From the IMG/VR virus record IMGVR_UViG_2617270938_000004: a stretch of 11,126 nucleotides of DNA; one strand, written 5' to 3'. Numbering within the stretch: position 1 is the first letter of the stretch; each line of letters opens with the position of its first letter. Under the pieces are notes generated by a model. That model ran no database searches. It was given only the letters and a program-made list of their open reading frames with translations, and was not told where the DNA came from. Origin of the DNA: a virus (Duplodnaviria > Heunggongvirae > Uroviricota > Caudoviricetes). A program made the translations under genes and the position numbers. Of this stretch, positions 1 through 7,812 are shown one piece after another.

Positions 1-1194
1 ATGATCACCGACACAAAGCTCAGGAAGGCGCTCGGCAAGAAAAGAGATGATATCGAGATTATTTCTGATTCGCACGGGCTCAACGCCAGAATCAGCCAGG
101 CCGGAAAAATATCATTTTTCTATCGGTATCGCTGGGCCGGTAAAGCGGTAAAACTCAATGTTGGTGATTATCCTGCAATGAGTATCACCCAGGCAAGAGA
201 GCGTCGCCAACAATTCAGAAACTGGTTAACTGAGGGACTGGATCCGCGAGAGCAGGTGAAGCTGGATAAGCAGACCCGACAGGAAGCGATGTCCGTTGCC
301 GAAGCGTTCAATTACTGGATTGAAAGGCACTGTATCGCTAACGGGCTAGTTAAAGTCGATTACTATCGCCAGGTGTTTGAGAAACATATCGCCGAACCGA
401 TGAAGAATGTCAAAGTCGATAACACAGCGAAAATGCACTGGATCAACGTCTTCGATTCTATAGAAAGCAGGGTGATGGCTCATTACATGCTTTCGCTGTG
501 CAAACGGGCGTTTAGGTTCTGCGTTAACAGAAGTGTGATCGCCTCAAACCCACTCGAGGGATTACTGCCATCTGATGTCGGGCAAAAGCCTAAAAAGAGA
601 ACTCGCAGGATGGACGATGACGATCTGCGCAAAATCTATCAGTGGTTGAAAAGCCATATGTCGATAGAGTCCGTTTTCCTGGTGAAATTTATTATGCTTA
701 CCGGATGCCGTACGGCTGAGATTCGACTTAGTGAGAGATCATGGTTTCGATTGGATGATAATGAGTGGGTCGTGCCTGCGGGCAGTTATAAAACTCGGGT
801 ACATATTAGAAGGGGACTCTCAGACGCCGCCGTTAACCTGGTCAGAAATCACCTCAAGAAAATAAACACCAATCACCTGGTGACTTCACAACGTAAAATT
901 GATGGCGGGATCAAAGATTCGCCCGTTCATTCACCTGTGGCATCCAATTACGCCCGTTCTATTTGGAATGGAACAGGTATGGCAGAGTGGTCGCTTCATG
1001 ATATGAGGCGGACGATAGCCACAAATCTCTCTGAGTTAGGTTGCCCGCCGCACGTAATTGAAAAGCTGCTCGGGCATCAGATGGTGGGGGTTATGGCGCA
1101 TTACAACCTTCATGACTATATCGATGATCAGAAACACTGGCTCCGCGTTTGGCAGAGCCATCTTGAAGAGATCATCGGAGAGCCCTTCAGTTAA
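1..1194 (+). CDS. int: Tyrosine recombinase / phage integrase, P4-type
   Basis: 397-aa ORF. N-terminus '[33 protein letters not shown]' resembles the arm-binding domain of P4-family integrases. Catalytic-domain signatures are present: 'TGCRTAEI' (Arg), 'HDMRRT' (His-x-x-Arg), 'LLGHQ...MAHYNLHDY' (His/Tyr). Stop TAA at 1192-1194. Upstream RBS and att site are outside the window. Confidence 0.9.
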
Positions 1195-1388
1195 TTTATC
1201 TTCTTTTTATCCTCCCACTCTTTGATTGACTCAGAGCGCCAGCGGTTAGGGTTGCCGGGCCAGTCAGGGGGTGGGAACGGGCATACGAAGCCCCGAGGCA
1301 TTGTGTCTGCACTTTGCCATGACCAAAGGGTTTTGCGTGAAATTTTGTAGCGACTGGTCAGGTCTGACGTTACCAAAATATCATCCAT
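1191..1388 (-). CDS. alpA: AlpA-family prophage regulator / excisionase-like HTH protein
   Basis: The ATG at 1388-1386 gives a 65-aa protein '[59 protein letters not shown]', which fits the AlpA pattern (HTH, then FP-P, then W-x-x-E-x-x-W). The ORF-track start at 1433 is a TTG with no RBS; the ATG at 1388 is preceded by a purine-rich 'AGAGAGAG'. The stop overlaps the int stop. Confidence 0.7.
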
Positions 1389-1429
1389 AGCTCTCTCTAG
1401 TTGCCCGTTCGGGCCATTCAAAATCTTTT

Positions 1430-1672
1430 TCAACCAACCTGCCCGGGCAGGGAGCGGAGACGGCGCATGCCGGTCATCGCTGTGGCCACGTAGCTCGCCT
1501 TTCGGTTCACCACCTCCACCCAGACTTTCACGCCTTCAACCTTCACCGTATAAGTCTCTTTCATCTTGCTTCGCCCATAGTCGCCATATGTTTGCAAGTG
1601 AGCTGCCAGCGCGATGTCGCATGCTTGGCGAGCTAAAGGTGATTGCTTACTTCCTCGATTGATCAGTCGCAT
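1430..1672 (-). CDS. Hypothetical small protein (80 aa) in the recombination operon
   Basis: ATG at 1672-1670 preceded by a strong Shine-Dalgarno 'AAGGAG' with a roughly 6-nt spacer (reverse complement of 1673-1684). It sits between the RecT-like and AlpA-like genes on the same strand. No family recognised by eye. Confidence 0.55.
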   Translation of the reverse strand: MRLINRGSKQSPLARQACDIALAAHLQTYGDYGRSKMKETYTVKVEGVKVWVEVVNRKASYVATAMTGMRRLRSLPGQVG

Positions 1673-1710
1673 ATAATCTCCTTGAGGGAGGGTTACCCCT
1701 CCCGGTCTCG

Positions 1711-2829
1711 TCAGGCCACGTATTCCGGTTTCATATCCGCCAGGGTGATGCTGAATTGATCGTGCAGTTCATCGCCTAAGTGACGCTTTGAAGATGCAAG
1801 CATGCGCTCGGCTTCAGCGAACCGTTCGGCTGCATGCGGCTCGTCGGGCTGGGGCAGGGATTTAATAGCCTCCTCAACCTTGTTGCGTGCATCCACTAGG
1901 TAATAACGCTTTACGGCTTTGTTTTTCAGCTCGGTGAATAGTGCGGATCCCAGCGTAGCTTTCGCCGTTTCAATGTCGGCACGCAGCGATTTGGCGCTAT
2001 CCACGTCCTGAGCAGATTCGATGCGTTCGCGGAAATCATCGGCAAGAGAGTCGACATTTACCGACGATTCCTGTGCGCTTTGCGTGGTTGTGACGGTGTC
2101 ACCTGAGATATCAGCCAGGCTAACGCGTTGCGGCGTTGGGTTGATCTCTTTTTCTGTGCGCTGTTCAATCTCATCAGGGGTGTACACACCAAGAACAACT
2201 GCAGGGCAATACAGGCGCGCCCAGTATTTGAGTGCCAGATAAGCGATCTGCTGTTTCGGGTTTGATACCCAAAGTGGAGAATTACGTGTGATTACGCTGG
2301 AGAGGAAAACAGGCTCTCCCCAGGTGATATCACTTTCACCGCGAATAACGGCACCTACCCGTACCGACAGTCCTTGTTCATCAGCACTTTCCCAACCGCG
2401 TACCATTTCTTTCTTGTCGTACGTCCCGCCACCTTTCGCAGGCTTTTTAACGGTTATCTCGCGGCTGCTGGCACATTTCGACCAGTCGCCCTCGTACTCA
2501 TAGTGAAAGCGGCCAACGATGGCGTTTGAGCTGGAGATCACCGCATTAACCAGTTGCGCTTCGTATCCCAGGACACCGTTAACCAGGTGCGTCTTTTGCG
2601 CCACGGCGTAAGGGTTCATACCCCACTGCATCGCCTGCATGATGATGGCCATGCAGTCTGCCGGATTGCCGCGGAGGTGCTCAGGCACCGTTACGGCTGC
2701 CTGTGCCATCAACCCGGCGACAGACTGAAGCTGGGTTAAAGCCTGCACGTTGAAAATGGCATTGCTGGCTGAGATCGTGTTTGGAGTCTGCTGTTCAGCG
2801 GTTACGATATTCGTGTTTTCCATCATCAT
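1711..2829 (-). CDS. RecT/Bet-family single-strand annealing protein
   Basis: 372 aa. Segments 'GNPADCMAIIMQAMQWGMNPYAVAQKTHLV' and 'LWVSNPKQQIAYLALKYWARLYCPAVVLGVYTPDEIE' parallel lambda Bet as I remember it ('...FIALLIVANQYGLNPWTKEIYAF...', '...PWQSHPKRMLRHKAMIQCARLAFGFAGIYDKDEAE'). RBS 'AAGGGGA' lies directly upstream of the ATG triplet at 2829-2821, and the upstream gene's stop is only 5 nt away. Confidence 0.8.
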   Translation of the reverse strand: MMMENTNIVTAEQQTPNTISASNAIFNVQALTQLQSVAGLMAQAAVTVPEHLRGNPADCMAIIMQAMQWGMNPYAVAQKTHLVNGVLGYEAQLVNAVISSSNAIVGRFHYEYEGDWSKCASSREITVKKPAKGGGTYDKKEMVRGWESADEQGLSVRVGAVIRGESDITWGEPVFLSSVITRNSPLWVSNPKQQIAYLALKYWARLYCPAVVLGVYTPDEIEQRTEKEINPTPQRVSLADISGDTVTTTQSAQESSVNVDSLADDFRERIESAQDVDSAKSLRADIETAKATLGSALFTELKNKAVKRYYLVDARNKVEEAIKSLPQPDEPHAAERFAEAERMLASSKRHLGDELHDQFSITLADMKPEYVA

Positions 2830-2834
2830 TCCCC

Positions 2835-3704
2835 TTATGCCTGAGTACGCAGCGCTTCAAGGCGGCGCAGGTCGAAGTCGTTCAGTTCGTCGGTGTAGTC
2901 AGCAGTGATTGGCGCTGGCCATTCACCTGTGTCGAATCCGGTTGCGATATTGCGCATCGCTTTGCGGTACTCGAGCATACCCAGCTCCAGTAGTTCAGCG
3001 GATGCCTCGATGATGGCGATCCAGTGGTAGTTCTCGTCTTTGTTGACGAAAATCCAGAAGAACTGATCCAGCGCTGCGGTTTCGCAGTACATAGCCGCGC
3101 TCAGGTGATAATCACGTTCAATAATTTCCCGGTGTAGCCTGGCGCGCAGGCTTTCCTGCTTAACATTCCACATGCTGATGGTTTTCAGGTCAGCACCGAT
3201 ACGCACGCCGTCTAGGTCGATCTCAAGGTCAGGGCGCACACGAACTTCCAGTCCCGTCTCCTCGTCAAAGCCAAAGTAGCTCACCTCAACGGCGCGGCTC
3301 GGGTGGGTTAGCAGCATGCCTGCGGTCGGGTGCGAGAGCAGTGCTGACTGAATTGCCTGCGCGGTGGCAAGTTGCTGGTGGGTAACCAGCACTTTCCCTT
3401 CCGGGTTGTTGCGCCACGCATCGAGCAGCTCGTCGGCGAACACTGCATCTGGTTTGACTGCCTTCACGGCCTGAATCAGATCGGCCTTCGTGCCAGAGAC
3501 TTTCAGCGGTTGCAGCTTCTGAGCTTCCTGCGCGACCAGGTCAGGATTGATAATCGCAAGTTGTTCGAGTAGTGCGTCGCGGCTGCCGCTGGTTTTAATC
3601 TGCGCTGGCAGGGTGGCGTTGTACTCTTTGATGCACGCCTTCATTGCTGTTGCTGTCTTCTTCTGATCTGCATCGATACGTTGGAATTCAGCTGGCAGCG
3701 CCAT
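2835..3704 (-). CDS. PD-(D/E)XK-superfamily exonuclease (RecE/YqaJ-like partner of the annealing protein)
   Basis: Motif 'VEVSYFGFDEETGLEVRVRPDLEIDLDGVRIGADLKTIS' fits the E...PD...(D/E)xK nuclease core. The gene is immediately upstream of, and co-oriented with, the RecT-like gene. Start placed at the ATG at 3704-3702 ('MALPAEFQ...'); the ORF track extends to a GTG at 3764, which would overlap the divergent GP46-like gene. Confidence 0.7.
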   Translation of the reverse strand: MALPAEFQRIDADQKKTATAMKACIKEYNATLPAQIKTSGSRDALLEQLAIINPDLVAQEAQKLQPLKVSGTKADLIQAVKAVKPDAVFADELLDAWRNNPEGKVLVTHQQLATAQAIQSALLSHPTAGMLLTHPSRAVEVSYFGFDEETGLEVRVRPDLEIDLDGVRIGADLKTISMWNVKQESLRARLHREIIERDYHLSAAMYCETAALDQFFWIFVNKDENYHWIAIIEASAELLELGMLEYRKAMRNIATGFDTGEWPAPITADYTDELNDFDLRRLEALRTQA

Positions 3705-3709
3705 ATAGT
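3681..3709 (+). promoter_or_regulatory. Candidate sigma70-like promoter (TTGGAA-N17-TATAGT) reading toward the baseplate genes
   Basis: 'ttggaa' at 3681-3686 and 'tatagt' at 3704-3709, separated by 17 nt, about 50 nt upstream of the ATG at 3759. Pattern match only. Confidence 0.2.
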
Positions 3710-3758
3710 TCTGCGCCGTTTCATCCAGGCTAACGGCGTACTGACATCTGAGAATGAT

Positions 3759-4121
3759 ATGCACACGGCCATAATTATCAGTTTGTTTACTGACGGACTG
3801 GCGCGCGCTGATGATGATTATGAAGGAACTGACCGCCGCGGCTGGTGGGGGGATCTGGACAACGACCGGAATATTGGCTCAAGGCTGTGGCTACTGCGGC
3901 GTGAAAAACTGACGCGCGAAGTGGCGATGAGAGCTGAAGATTATGCCGAAGAGGCTCTGGCCTGGATGAAGTCGGATGGTATTGCAGCAGCGATAGAGGC
4001 TCAGTCAGAGATTGTTTTCCCGAATAGGCTGAACCTCATCATCCGGTATTTGCCGCCGGCGGGGGACTGGCAGGAGTTCAAATTCTTCTGGCTATGGGAG
4101 CAACTGAATAATGCCATTTAA
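3759..4121 (+). CDS. Phage GP46-family baseplate protein (Mu gp46-like)
   Basis: 'AIIISLFTDGLARADDDYEGTDRRGWWGDLDNDRNIGSRLWLLRREKLT' matches the GP46 family signature (SLFTD...RRGWWGD...GSRLWLL). First ATG in frame is at 3759; the ORF-track start at 3681 is a TTG. The N-terminus may be shortened relative to family members. Confidence 0.7.
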   Translation: MHTAIIISLFTDGLARADDDYEGTDRRGWWGDLDNDRNIGSRLWLLRREKLTREVAMRAEDYAEEALAWMKSDGIAAAIEAQSEIVFPNRLNLIIRYLPPAGDWQEFKFFWLWEQLNNAI

Positions 4122-5259
4122 GCGGAAAACACTGAGCGAGCTCCGGCAGGAGAATCGCCAGTTTATGCAGGCAGAGCTTGAAAGTGTTGGCGCGCTGTTA
4201 CGGTTTGGCAACCTTAAGGTGCTCGCTGATATGGATGCGGGCATGGCCCATCTGCACTACGCCTACCTGGATTATATTGCCCGTCAGAGCACGCCTTTCA
4301 CCTCTACCGATGAGTGGCTTGCCGGATGGATGGCGCTAAAGCAGATTTACCGAAAAGCCGCAACGGCAGCACGCTCTCCGGCGGCGACCGTTACCGGAAC
4401 GCCGGGGAAAACACTGTCAAAAGGGGCGGTGTTAAACCGTGATGATGGTTACCAGTACACAACCGATGATGCCATAACGATAAACACTGCTGGCAGTGCG
4501 TCGGTTGCTGTAACAGCGGTTTTGCCGGATATCACAGACGATGTGACAGGAGGAGGCACTTCCGGAAATGCCGATGCTGGCACCATTCTTACACTGGATG
4601 CTAATGCCCCCGGCATAGACAGCTCGGTTACGCTGATTGAGCCCGCCACCGGCGGCGCCAACATTGAAAGTGAAGAGGATTTCCGATTACGTGGTCTGCT
4701 GGCGTATCAGAATCCCCCGCAGGGCGGGAGTGACACTGATTATAAAAGCTGGGCTTTATCCGTGTCGGGGATCACCAGGGCATGGATACGGCGCCGGGGG
4801 ATGGGGCCGGGTACCGTGGTGATTTACATCATGTGCGACGGCGATGATAAAACCAATCATGGATTCCCTGCAGGAACTGACGGTGTCTCTCAACTGGAAG
4901 AGTGGGGGGCTGTAAAAGCCACCGGGGATCAGGGGAGAGTTGCCGATTATATGTATCCGCTTGCGCCGGTTACCTCCCTTAACTATGTCTGCTCTCCCAT
5001 CGAACGCGTTATCGATTTTGAAATAAGCGGGATATCTGATGCCGACAGCGCAACGACTGCGGCCATTGCTGATGCGATTGACGGGGTATTGTTTGAATCT
5101 GCTAACCCGCTCGGCACAGGGAAAATTTACCTTTCAGATCTCAACCGTGCGATAGGGGATGTTGCCGGTACTTCAGGTTATATCCTTGTGTCGCCTTCTG
5201 CGAATATTGAGCCGGGAGTTGGGGAGCTGGCTGTTCGTGGTGAGGTGAACTACACATGA
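4111..5259 (+). CDS. Baseplate J-like protein (Mu gp47 / e14 JayE-like)
   Basis: 382-aa ORF whose start overlaps the GP46-like gene by 11 nt. Order GP46-J-DUF2313 is as in Mu-like and e14-like tail modules. Judged Baseplate_J-like by overall similarity; HMM confirmation needed. Confidence 0.8.
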   Translation: MPFKRKTLSELRQENRQFMQAELESVGALLRFGNLKVLADMDAGMAHLHYAYLDYIARQSTPFTSTDEWLAGWMALKQIYRKAATAARSPAATVTGTPGKTLSKGAVLNRDDGYQYTTDDAITINTAGSASVAVTAVLPDITDDVTGGGTSGNADAGTILTLDANAPGIDSSVTLIEPATGGANIESEEDFRLRGLLAYQNPPQGGSDTDYKSWALSVSGITRAWIRRRGMGPGTVVIYIMCDGDDKTNHGFPAGTDGVSQLEEWGAVKATGDQGRVADYMYPLAPVTSLNYVCSPIERVIDFEISGISDADSATTAAIADAIDGVLFESANPLGTGKIYLSDLNRAIGDVAGTSGYILVSPSANIEPGVGELAVRGEVNYT

Positions 5260-5956: not shown

Positions 5957-6742
5957 ATGAGAAAAGTTGGCAGTACAACTGACACCGCTGATGCTAATGG
6001 TGAATACACTAATGGTAATGTCGCTAATGGTATTTCACCGACAATAATTAATGCTGAGATGATGAATACCTTTCAGCGTGAGCTGGTAAACGTTGTTGAG
6101 GGCGCGGGGCTTGAGCTTGATCCTGATGATGATTCACAGGTTCTTAAAGCGATTGGTGGCGGTCGCCTGCTTAATATTGTCACCTTTACTAAGTCAGGGA
6201 CTTACACTCCAACTAAAGGGACGAAAAGAGTGCGGGTGAAAGTTTGGGGAGCGGGGGGAGGTGGCCAGAATGCTCCAGTTAGTGTGGGCGCATCTGGAGG
6301 TTGTGCTGGTGGATTTTCGGAAGGGTTATTTAATATTTCTGATAACGAAACTATATCTGTGACGATAGGTACTGGTGGCAGTGCTGTTGCTGCTGGTGTC
6401 TCGTCTAAAGGCGGGAATGGTGGTGATACAAGGTTCGGGAGTTTAATCTCAGCTACTGGAGGGAGTGGTGGCGGGGCTACAGTTCCTGCTGGAGGTATCG
6501 GAAGTGGCGGGAACATTTTAAATATTACTGGCGGAATATCTCAAGGTGGTCTGTATTATGGTTCTGATGCTTTTATTGGCGGGGCTGGGGGATCTGCATT
6601 TTCATCAACGGGTGGCAATGGCCACTTCGGTAGTTCTGGCGATGATGGCGGTTTCCCCGGCTCAGGTGGTGCCGGGGGGAATGGTAACTATTCATCAGGA
6701 AAAGGAGCGAATGGTTTAGTTTACCTTGAAGAGTTTTCCTGA
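5957..6742 (+). CDS. Tail fibre protein with conserved N-terminal fibre domain and glycine-rich C-terminal region
   Basis: 261 aa. RBS 'GAAGG' 5 nt before the ATG. N-terminus 'GISPTIINAEMMNTFQRELVNVVEGAGLELDPDDDSQVLKAIGG' matches the conserved tail-fibre N-terminal motif seen in P2/Mu/e14-type fibres. C-terminal 170 aa is Gly-rich ('VKVWGAGGGGQN...GGSGGGATVPAGGIGSGGN...'). Codon usage is AT-rich relative to the upstream baseplate genes. Confidence 0.75.
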   Translation: MRKVGSTTDTADANGEYTNGNVANGISPTIINAEMMNTFQRELVNVVEGAGLELDPDDDSQVLKAIGGGRLLNIVTFTKSGTYTPTKGTKRVRVKVWGAGGGGQNAPVSVGASGGCAGGFSEGLFNISDNETISVTIGTGGSAVAAGVSSKGGNGGDTRFGSLISATGGSGGGATVPAGGIGSGGNILNITGGISQGGLYYGSDAFIGGAGGSAFSSTGGNGHFGSSGDDGGFPGSGGAGGNGNYSSGKGANGLVYLEEFS

Positions 6743-7812
6743 TTATTTTTGCTTTGAGCGTCCGCCCTTATTTTTGCTCTAATTTTAATTAGTGGCTTTT
6801 CTATTAATATTACACAAACGATCCCAAGTGCAATTGATATTGGGTAGCCTAATAAAAAGATGGATAAGCCACGATTTTCACCACCAATAGCAAGCCATGC
6901 TAGAAATCCACCAAAATATTGACAAAGAAAAATTGGATAGGCCAGGTCACCAAACCACTTGAGTATTTTCTCAAGATGTATGTTTGTCTTTATTTTTAAT
7001 AATACCAGGGTTGTAAACAATGCTATTACATTATTGGTGTAGTAAAGTATTATGTTGTACTGACCTAATGCATTAATTGTATATAAATGCCAATTGGTAA
7101 TAAAAATCCCGATGCAAATAAATGTTATTAAAAAAGCTTTGTGTGGAGAAAGATACATAGCTTTGAACTTTCTATGGGCAAAATAACCCAGAGAACCCAT
7201 GCTAAAAGGAAGTGTTGCAGCAAGGAATGGGAAATACGCCATATCAAAAGAATGGTGTACTACATATACGTAAGCATGATAAAGCAGTGAAAGCAGAATC
7301 GACGTAATGGCTGTAAATTTATTTCGGGCTATGAAAAGCCACAATAAAAAATAACATGTTATCTCAACACCCACTGACCATGATGATGTGACTATTCTGA
7401 ATCTATTACCATCAATAGCAAAGTGATAAATGGATGAAAAGGCACCGAATGGATTTGCTACAGCATTATCAGAAAGGAAAGCCCAGGGGAAGATTAAGAG
7501 GTTTCCTAATAAATCTCCAGGTAAGAAATTGCCTGTCCAGTTTGAGTGGAATTCCTTTGCGGATGGAATTAATTTTATAATAAGAAAGCCCATGACGAGA
7601 AAAAATATATATGCCGGGAATAACCTCAGCATTCTATTTTTCCAAAACATAGAGAAGTTGAACTTGTATGTTTCATGCAAAATGTATGTTATTAAAAAAC
7701 CACTAATAACATAGAAGCAATTCACTGCAAAGTTGCCAAGTGCAGGTATGCGAGCCGTTAAGTGAAAAGCAATGACGCACGATGCCAAAAAAAACCTTAT
7801 TAGGCCAAGCAT
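6721..7812 (-). CDS. Acyltransferase family 3 integral membrane protein (O-antigen / polysaccharide O-acetyltransferase-like, Oac/OafA-type)
   Basis: 363 aa and highly hydrophobic. Family hallmarks: 'FHLTARIPALGNFAVNCFYVISGFLITY' and 'FWKNRMLRLFPAYIFF', comparable to the 'G-x-x-GVD-x-FFV-x-SGFLIT' and 'R-x-x-R-I-x-PxY' motifs. The 3' end overlaps the convergent tail fibre gene by 22 bp. Confidence 0.85.
   Translation of the reverse strand: MLGLIRFFLASCVIAFHLTARIPALGNFAVNCFYVISGFLITYILHETYKFNFSMFWKNRMLRLFPAYIFFLVMGFLIIKLIPSAKEFHSNWTGNFLPGDLLGNLLIFPWAFLSDNAVANPFGAFSSIYHFAIDGNRFRIVTSSWSVGVEITCYFLLWLFIARNKFTAITSILLSLLYHAYVYVVHHSFDMAYFPFLAATLPFSMGSLGYFAHRKFKAMYLSPHKAFLITFICIGIFITNWHLYTINALGQYNIILYYTNNVIALFTTLVLLKIKTNIHLEKILKWFGDLAYPIFLCQYFGGFLAWLAIGGENRGLSIFLLGYPISIALGIVCVILIEKPLIKIRAKIRADAQSKNNQENSSR

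Follow-up and report, generated by a model that had tools for sequence, protein, structure and literature searches.

A strongly conserved DUF4060 gene in the accessory slot between the recombination and excisionase genes of a decayed phi80/HK225-like prophage

In phage lambda, the part of the leftward early operon that separates the recombination genes from the excisionase gene (xis) holds p35, ea8.5, ea22, orf61, orf63 and orf60a, the products of which form a functionally diverse class. The homologous RecE-RecT operon of the Rac prophages has a corresponding slot between recT and xis, occupied by other small accessory proteins. For instance, recT of Rac-SA53, whose product is 64% identical to the RecT of the prophage described here, is followed by ralR, ydaC (rcbA), xis and int, and the Rac prophage of E. 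coli K-12 has the same layout. RalR (Lar) is a Cys-rich zinc-ribbon protein involved in restriction alleviation and also described as a DNase toxin. RecBCD inhibitors of the lambda Gam type are likewise small proteins of the early-left operon, encoded near the recombination genes; Gam mimics DNA through a helical architecture, and among anti-restriction proteins the DNA mimics Ocr and ArdA have an acidic character. Regarding the physiological roles of such genes, two studies report an influence of the exo-xis genes of lambda and Stx phages on lysogenisation and induction (PMC3824215, PMC7093339). In addition, the Gifsy-2 operon STM1005-1009 has been listed among the operons responding to the DNA-damaging mutagen MX (PMC2225428).

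Here, we characterize the gene that fills this slot in a prophage sequence from the IMG/VR database (Caudoviricetes, IMGVR_UViG_2617270938_000004), the window being the whole stretch of 11,126 nucleotides that was analysed. An earlier note, produced from these nucleotides without database searches, had drawn attention to an 80-aa open reading frame (ORF) preceded by a canonical AAGGAG Shine-Dalgarno (SD) motif. It assigned this ORF to an exonuclease-RecT-AlpA operon, found no recognisable homology for its product and proposed it, from its position, as a candidate anti-nuclease or anti-defence factor. The ORF and its ribosome-binding site were both confirmed. The gene (1430..1672, minus strand, stop codon included) runs over 80 codons from an ATG at 1672-1670 to a TGA at 1432-1430 and encodes a protein of 8.9 kDa with a pI of 10.3, while AAGGAG can be read in the sequence at 1683-1678, 5 nt upstream of the ATG. 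Most of the loci related to the window display an SD-like GGAG motif at the matching position.

The statement that the protein lacks recognisable homology proved wrong. Its residues 3-77 align on profile positions 1-74 of 74 of Pfam DUF4060 (PF13269; E=1.5e-34, 118.5 bits for a cutoff of 21), and it covers positions 1-78 of 79 of PHROG 1852, a family labelled 'unknown function' (E=1.5e-43). It is 100% identical to proteins of HK225 and mEp237, 92.5% identical to phi80 gp33 and ~70% identical to STM2634 of Gifsy-1 and STM1007 of Gifsy-2. The exact sequence is recorded in RefSeq as WP_001237029.1 and, named 'DUF4060 family protein', recurs on no fewer than 1000 public contigs. At the nucleotide level, the region extending from 1100 to ~3735 of the window shares 99.9% identity with HK225 and 96.7% with mEp237, and phi80 matches the int-xis-ORF part at 98% identity. 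These similarities identify the ORF as the DUF4060 gene already catalogued in lambdoid prophages of the phi80, HK225 and Gifsy type. The genes of phi80, HK225, mEp237, Gifsy-1 and Gifsy-2 share with it both the family and the place directly upstream of xis; their proteins show no substantive difference from that of the window, the window prophage itself being a deletion remnant. The record of HK225 gp32 (6331-6465 of the HK225 locus, L001) annotates only the last 44 codons, from Met37. The complete 80-codon frame is nevertheless intact in HK225 and identical to the window ORF, and since the 36 N-terminal residues are conserved throughout the family, Met1 is the start of the ORF.

The family is narrow, as an exhaustive profile search among 1.8 billion cluster representatives gathered only 69 clusters (50% identity level); among 5.8 billion proteins searched, 211 homologues were identified. 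The 65 genomic loci recovered with a DUF4060 gene belong nearly all to Enterobacterales, mainly Enterobacteriaceae but also Pantoea, together with Hafnia phages. Despite identities falling to 29% in an alignment of 28 sequences, H25, Y41, Y61 and A63 are invariant and S60 and V62 nearly so, and the window protein has all the family-invariant residues as well as the strand-4 motif S-Y-V-A-T. Over 897 pairs drawn from 61 sequences, dN/dS has a median of 0.08 for a dS of ~1.25, which denotes strong purifying selection. The window ORF is a real and strongly conserved gene, beyond a chance ORF.

The genes of the window surrounding DUF4060 follow one another leftward in a single direction: recE', recT, a gap of 38 nt, the ORF, a gap of 41 nt and xis. 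The upstream gene, recT (1711..2829, minus strand, 372 aa; Pfam RecT E=2.5e-36, PHROG 561), encodes a protein 99.7-100% identical to the RecT of HK225 and mEp237. It is preceded by a truncated recE (2835..3764, minus strand) of 309 codons, versus 3390 bp and 1129 codons in HK225; this remnant corresponds to the C-terminal PD-(D/E)XK nuclease part (DUF3799) and matches the NCBIfam exodeoxyribonuclease VIII profile at positions 667-874 of 877 only. The recE'-recT-ORF order of the operon first described therefore stands, whereas its 'AlpA' gene, directly downstream of the ORF (1191..1388, minus strand, 65 aa), is a phi80-type xis (PHROG 1553, E=1.4e-33; 99.7% DNA identity to the phi80 int-xis record X04051), and the annotations of phi80 and HK225 place xis at the corresponding coordinates. 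Converging with xis over an overlap of 4 nt, a phi80-type tyrosine integrase gene (1..1194, plus strand; Pfam Arm-DNA-bind_3 and Phage_integrase) completes a layout that matches phi80 and HK225. The int gene of related E. coli strains adjoins kch, at the phi80 att region. The DUF4060 gene is thus placed second-to-last in the leftward early operon, in an accessory slot of variable content that separates the recombination genes from xis.

The idea that accessory genes tend to occupy this position was sound, as illustrated by RalR and RcbA in Rac and Rac-SA53 and by phage mEpX1, whose int and xis are those of the window (99.2% DNA identity) and whose slot contains an Ead/Ea22-like protein. This protein, gp29 (3831-4286 of the mEpX1 locus, L150), stops at the base matching the end of DUF4060 (comparison with 1430-1466 of the window), and the mosaic joint falls within the last 11 codons, so that gp29 also ends in RRLRSLPGQVG. 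Since related phages carry other genes in the slot, DUF4060 is dispensable for RecET and Int/Xis function and belongs to the non-essential early genes located between the recombination genes and xis. Such a position, which is that of the lambda exo-xis region, raises the possibility that DUF4060 modulates the lysis-lysogeny decision or the host physiology by targeting a host protein instead of nucleic acid, like lambda Ea8.5, Ea22, Orf60a, Orf61, Orf63 and Orf73; the Ea22-like occupant of mEpX1 and the influence of exo-xis genes on lysogenisation and induction mentioned above both agree with such a role. However, DUF4060 is tied to these genes by position only. Sequence comparisons gave no homology with lambda p35 (hhalign probability 0.58%) or Ea8.5 (0.17%), and no Pfam match of the window protein to the Orf60a, Orf61, Orf63 or Ea22 families. 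Moreover, the lambda exo-xis proteins are mechanistically so diverse that the class predicts little and designates no mechanism for DUF4060. We consider this role unlikely.

The neighbourhood of the gene was compared in 60 loci from other species in which DUF4060 is intact and its neighbours could be scored. The downstream gene encodes an excisionase in ~53 of them, of the DUF1233 type (21 loci), phi80/AlpA-like (17), of the lambda-type Exc family PF07825 (12) or HTH_17 (3), i.e. at least four unrelated families, and the integrases encoded beyond differ too. Upstream neighbours include RecT (25 loci), ASCH (14), Dam (7), PerC/MarR-like (5) and DUF7740 (4) proteins, among others. The distant members of the family (29-39% identity) are found beside an integrase gene or at the end of the early operon, and one of them (P0176) has no integrase within 4 kb. 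The window displays the context typical of the family, at the end of the early-left operon and next to xis and int. A separate observation concerns an orphan distant member (35% identity) at 4001-4249 of locus L159 (GCA_015190655.1): flanked by a NinX-like fragment and located between yebO/mgrB and an amino-acid permease gene, it is apparently the last remnant of a prophage.

These contexts bear on a possible function of DUF4060 as an accessory factor of RecE/RecT recombination, for example in RecT loading or in the handling of host SSB. RecE-RecT genes are present within 3 kb upstream in ~50 of the 65 loci, with RecT directly adjacent in 25, and single-stranded DNA or the acidic tail of SSB are conceivable ligands of a basic protein such as DUF4060 (see below). 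Nevertheless, RecET is missing from about a dozen loci with DUF4060, phi80 and SEN34 combine it with lambda-type exo/bet and a gam-like gene, and the RecET system of Rac-SA53 works without it. Furthermore, RecT is often separated from DUF4060 by other genes, which seldom intervene between DUF4060 and xis. A recombination cofactor thus appears very unlikely to us.

Several elements of the intergenic regions are also shared between loci. The centroid fold predicts a hairpin, GGGAGGG-GUAA-CCCUCCC (1686..1703, minus strand, 7-bp stem), between the recT stop codon and the SD of DUF4060. It recurs in nearly all of the 25 loci with RecT upstream (L084-L141, RecT being present as remnants in L104 and L124), with an almost invariant stem and a variable loop of 4-5 nt (GUAA, GAAA, UUCG, UCCG, GCAA and others). 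Because it is devoid of a U tract, this hairpin is not an intrinsic terminator, and the terminator listing for the window has no entry at 1686-1703. Three Atlantibacter/Citrobacter loci (L134, L136 and L139) have an SD-like GGGAGG upstream of the hairpin and no SD downstream of it. A second, GC hairpin that can be read in the sequence (GCCCG-AA-CGGGC, 1403..1414, minus strand) stands just before the SD of xis, and a GGCCC..GGGCC hairpin occupies the matching place in most of the 17 loci with a phi80-like xis, except L102, L110 and L115. More generally, whatever the type of xis, most loci have a hairpin directly ahead of its SD. Among the loci with a DUF1233 or Exc xis (e.g. L086, L089 and L116), most have stems that differ from one locus to the next yet stay complementary, and a conserved loop, TTTATACT or TTATAAT, that resembles a -10 element. 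The window itself differs from phi80, HK225 and mEpX1 in the ribosome-binding region of xis, which reads ACTAGAGAGAG instead of ACTGGAGAGAG; this single G-to-A change at 1398 weakens the GGAG core.

In 36 of the 60 related loci (L084-L148), irrespective of the xis family, the DUF4060 stop codon forms part of a palindrome, TGATA-N6-TATCA. Defined as 16 nt starting at the stop, it has a background frequency of ~1e-4 per position and could be a protein-binding site; it is absent at the DUF4060 stop of the window, phi80, HK225 and Gifsy-1/2. Another palindrome, CTGCCCGGGCAG, located in the last codons (LPGQ), was considered as a DNA or RNA signal and rejected, as other loci show unconstrained variation at third codon positions, which places the conservation of these codons at the protein level. 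No Rfam family matched the window.

The window prophage bears the marks of decay. Homology with HK225 and with recE of E. coli ends at ~3735 and homology to the GP46 baseplate gene begins at 3731, defining a deletion junction at 3731..3735 (homology breakpoints) where the interior of recE is joined to the start of GP46. The truncated recE and the segment 3681-4121 lie at this junction. The two sides, i.e. the left part up to 3735 and the right part from 3731, are ~31.5 kb apart in E. coli 20KM2222, and none of 5426 complete E. coli genomes has the exact recE-GP46 joint. The window is a decayed phi80/HK225-like prophage, preserved as a deletion remnant. Other E. coli strains contain a matching prophage at the same site beside kch, with different internal deletions. 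For instance, between E. coli 38I23CPO002 and E. coli 22F46 (L153 and L154), one strain has a frameshifted recE and a truncated gp47 and the other a truncated recT joined near GP46; both have kept an intact DUF4060 gene of identical sequence. Since the early promoter region was lost from the window, where only weak promoter-like matches were detected near the joint, normal expression of its DUF4060 gene is doubtful. In the right part, a gene for an acyltransferase-family membrane protein (6721-7812, minus strand) is found on the opposite strand amid the baseplate and tail-fibre genes (GP46, gp47/J, YmfQ and a glycine-rich protein); it resembles a moron, and many E. coli remnants also carry it.

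The window protein contains a single cysteine (C18) and has a net charge of +9. This basic character extends to all of the 61 DUF4060 members analysed (pI 9.7-11.2, net charge +7 to +12). The AlphaFold model built from a diverse alignment (pLDDT 84.6, pTM 0.72) successively comprises strand beta1 (2-5), a helix (12-32), strands beta2 (38-45), beta3 (48-56) and beta4 (60-65) and a tail of low confidence. Although modelled with low confidence, this Arg-rich C-terminal tail, MRRLRxLPGQ, is conserved across DUF4060. According to the model, DUF4060 is a single-domain beta-alpha-beta-beta-beta protein with a flexible Arg-rich tail. The periodicity of the helix and strands suggests that the invariant H25, Y41, Y61 and A63, together with S60 and V62, probably form a core between the Ala-rich face of the helix and the sheet.

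Structure prediction provided a confident domain and no structural analogue of known function. The Foldseek comparison of the model with the PDB returned no match below E=0.09, and searches of PDB sequences with two profiles nothing meaningful. The viral structures of BFVD contained only two matches, both unnamed proteins of 26-29% identity that are probably distant members of the DUF4060 family. No relative of known function was found by sequence or by predicted fold. Weak matches to the Shiga toxin B subunit and its OB fold (E 0.01-0.07, in three HMM libraries), far below threshold, were discarded; they are local, restricted to the region of strands 2-4, and the AlphaFold model is not an OB fold.

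With its N-terminal strand, helix and three-stranded meander, the model loosely recalls RelE/ParE, and DUF4060 was considered as a possible small toxin or growth inhibitor in the manner of the host-killing Kil genes. The TM-scores against RelE/ParE structures are nonetheless weak (only 0.33-0.38), and Pfam gave no match to a toxin family at E<=1. DUF4060 also has no constant antitoxin-like neighbour, the upstream gene being variable and the downstream one xis, and it is kept intact in many decayed prophages, which would be unexpected for an unopposed toxin. We consider a toxin function highly improbable.

In the anti-nuclease or anti-defence function proposed initially, DUF4060 would inhibit RecBCD, restriction or another defence system and shield the phage DNA ends during RecET action. 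Such a function is consistent with the presence of RalR and RcbA in the same slot of Rac and Rac-SA53, and with the association of DUF4060 with RecT: among the 16 phages of our collection with a RecT match over at least 95% of its length, 13 also carry DUF4060, these 13 being all those from Klebsiella, Salmonella or E. coli except Rac-SA53. Likewise, the annotated early-left region of HK225 has no gam, and the strong conservation across Enterobacterales is compatible with a conserved host target. Other observations oppose it. Remote homology comparisons gave hhalign probabilities below 1% for every candidate relative tried, namely lambda Gam (0.11%), RalR/Lar (0.08%) and RcbA (0.12%), in addition to the p35 and Ea8.5 values reported above, and Pfam and PHROGs yielded no Gam family match at E<=1. 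DUF4060 has a single cysteine and a predicted alpha/beta fold, unlike RalR, and its charge is opposite to that of the helical Gam mimic and of the acidic Ocr and ArdA. Together with the coexistence of DUF4060 and a gam-like gene in phi80 and SEN34, the basic charge and the lack of Gam similarity make nuclease inhibition of the Gam or DNA-mimic type unlikely. Furthermore, DUF4060 does without RecET in about a dozen loci, and the PDB and BFVD structure searches gave no match to a known counter-defence fold. PADLOC, whose library covers defence systems and not anti-defence proteins, gave no match for the ORF. Our analysis found no positive support for the hypothesis, and we regard an anti-defence function as unlikely.

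As a tentative explanation, with more doubt than confidence attached to it, we propose for DUF4060 an accessory role linked to the excision/integration step. The protein would be made early after induction or infection, alongside RecE, RecT and Xis. Its conserved positive charge suggests that it may then bind nucleic acid, or an acidic partner, and it would act in excision/integration or in the control of this step, rather than in nuclease inhibition. The connection to excision comes from the one constant neighbour of DUF4060, which is an excisionase gene of whatever family. This adjacency could however merely reflect the operon architecture and the placement of mosaic joints, and the mEpX1 joint inside the last 11 codons is a caveat on any functional reading of it. 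Moreover, the same Int and Xis allow mEpX1 to integrate and excise although it lacks DUF4060, so that a role in excision cannot be an essential one. The literature yielded no experiment or functional study of any DUF4060 protein. A more original possibility, to which we assign a low probability, is that DUF4060 represents a new kind of regulator or architectural cofactor of excision, working with several unrelated excisionase families, or a new basic anti-RecBCD or anti-defence protein that is not a DNA mimic, in either case with a fold new to the PDB.

The new knowledge provided by the window is small, as RefSeq already designates the gene product 'DUF4060 family protein' and the classical phages phi80, Gifsy-1 and Gifsy-2 carry the gene. 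Yet its sequences point to a gene that is under strong purifying selection, restricted to the prophages of Enterobacterales, deprived of structural analogues and nearly always located beside xis. Gifsy and phi80-type prophages matter for Salmonella virulence and as laboratory contaminants, and if DUF4060 were shown to control excision or to block a host nuclease, this would fill a gap in their biology.
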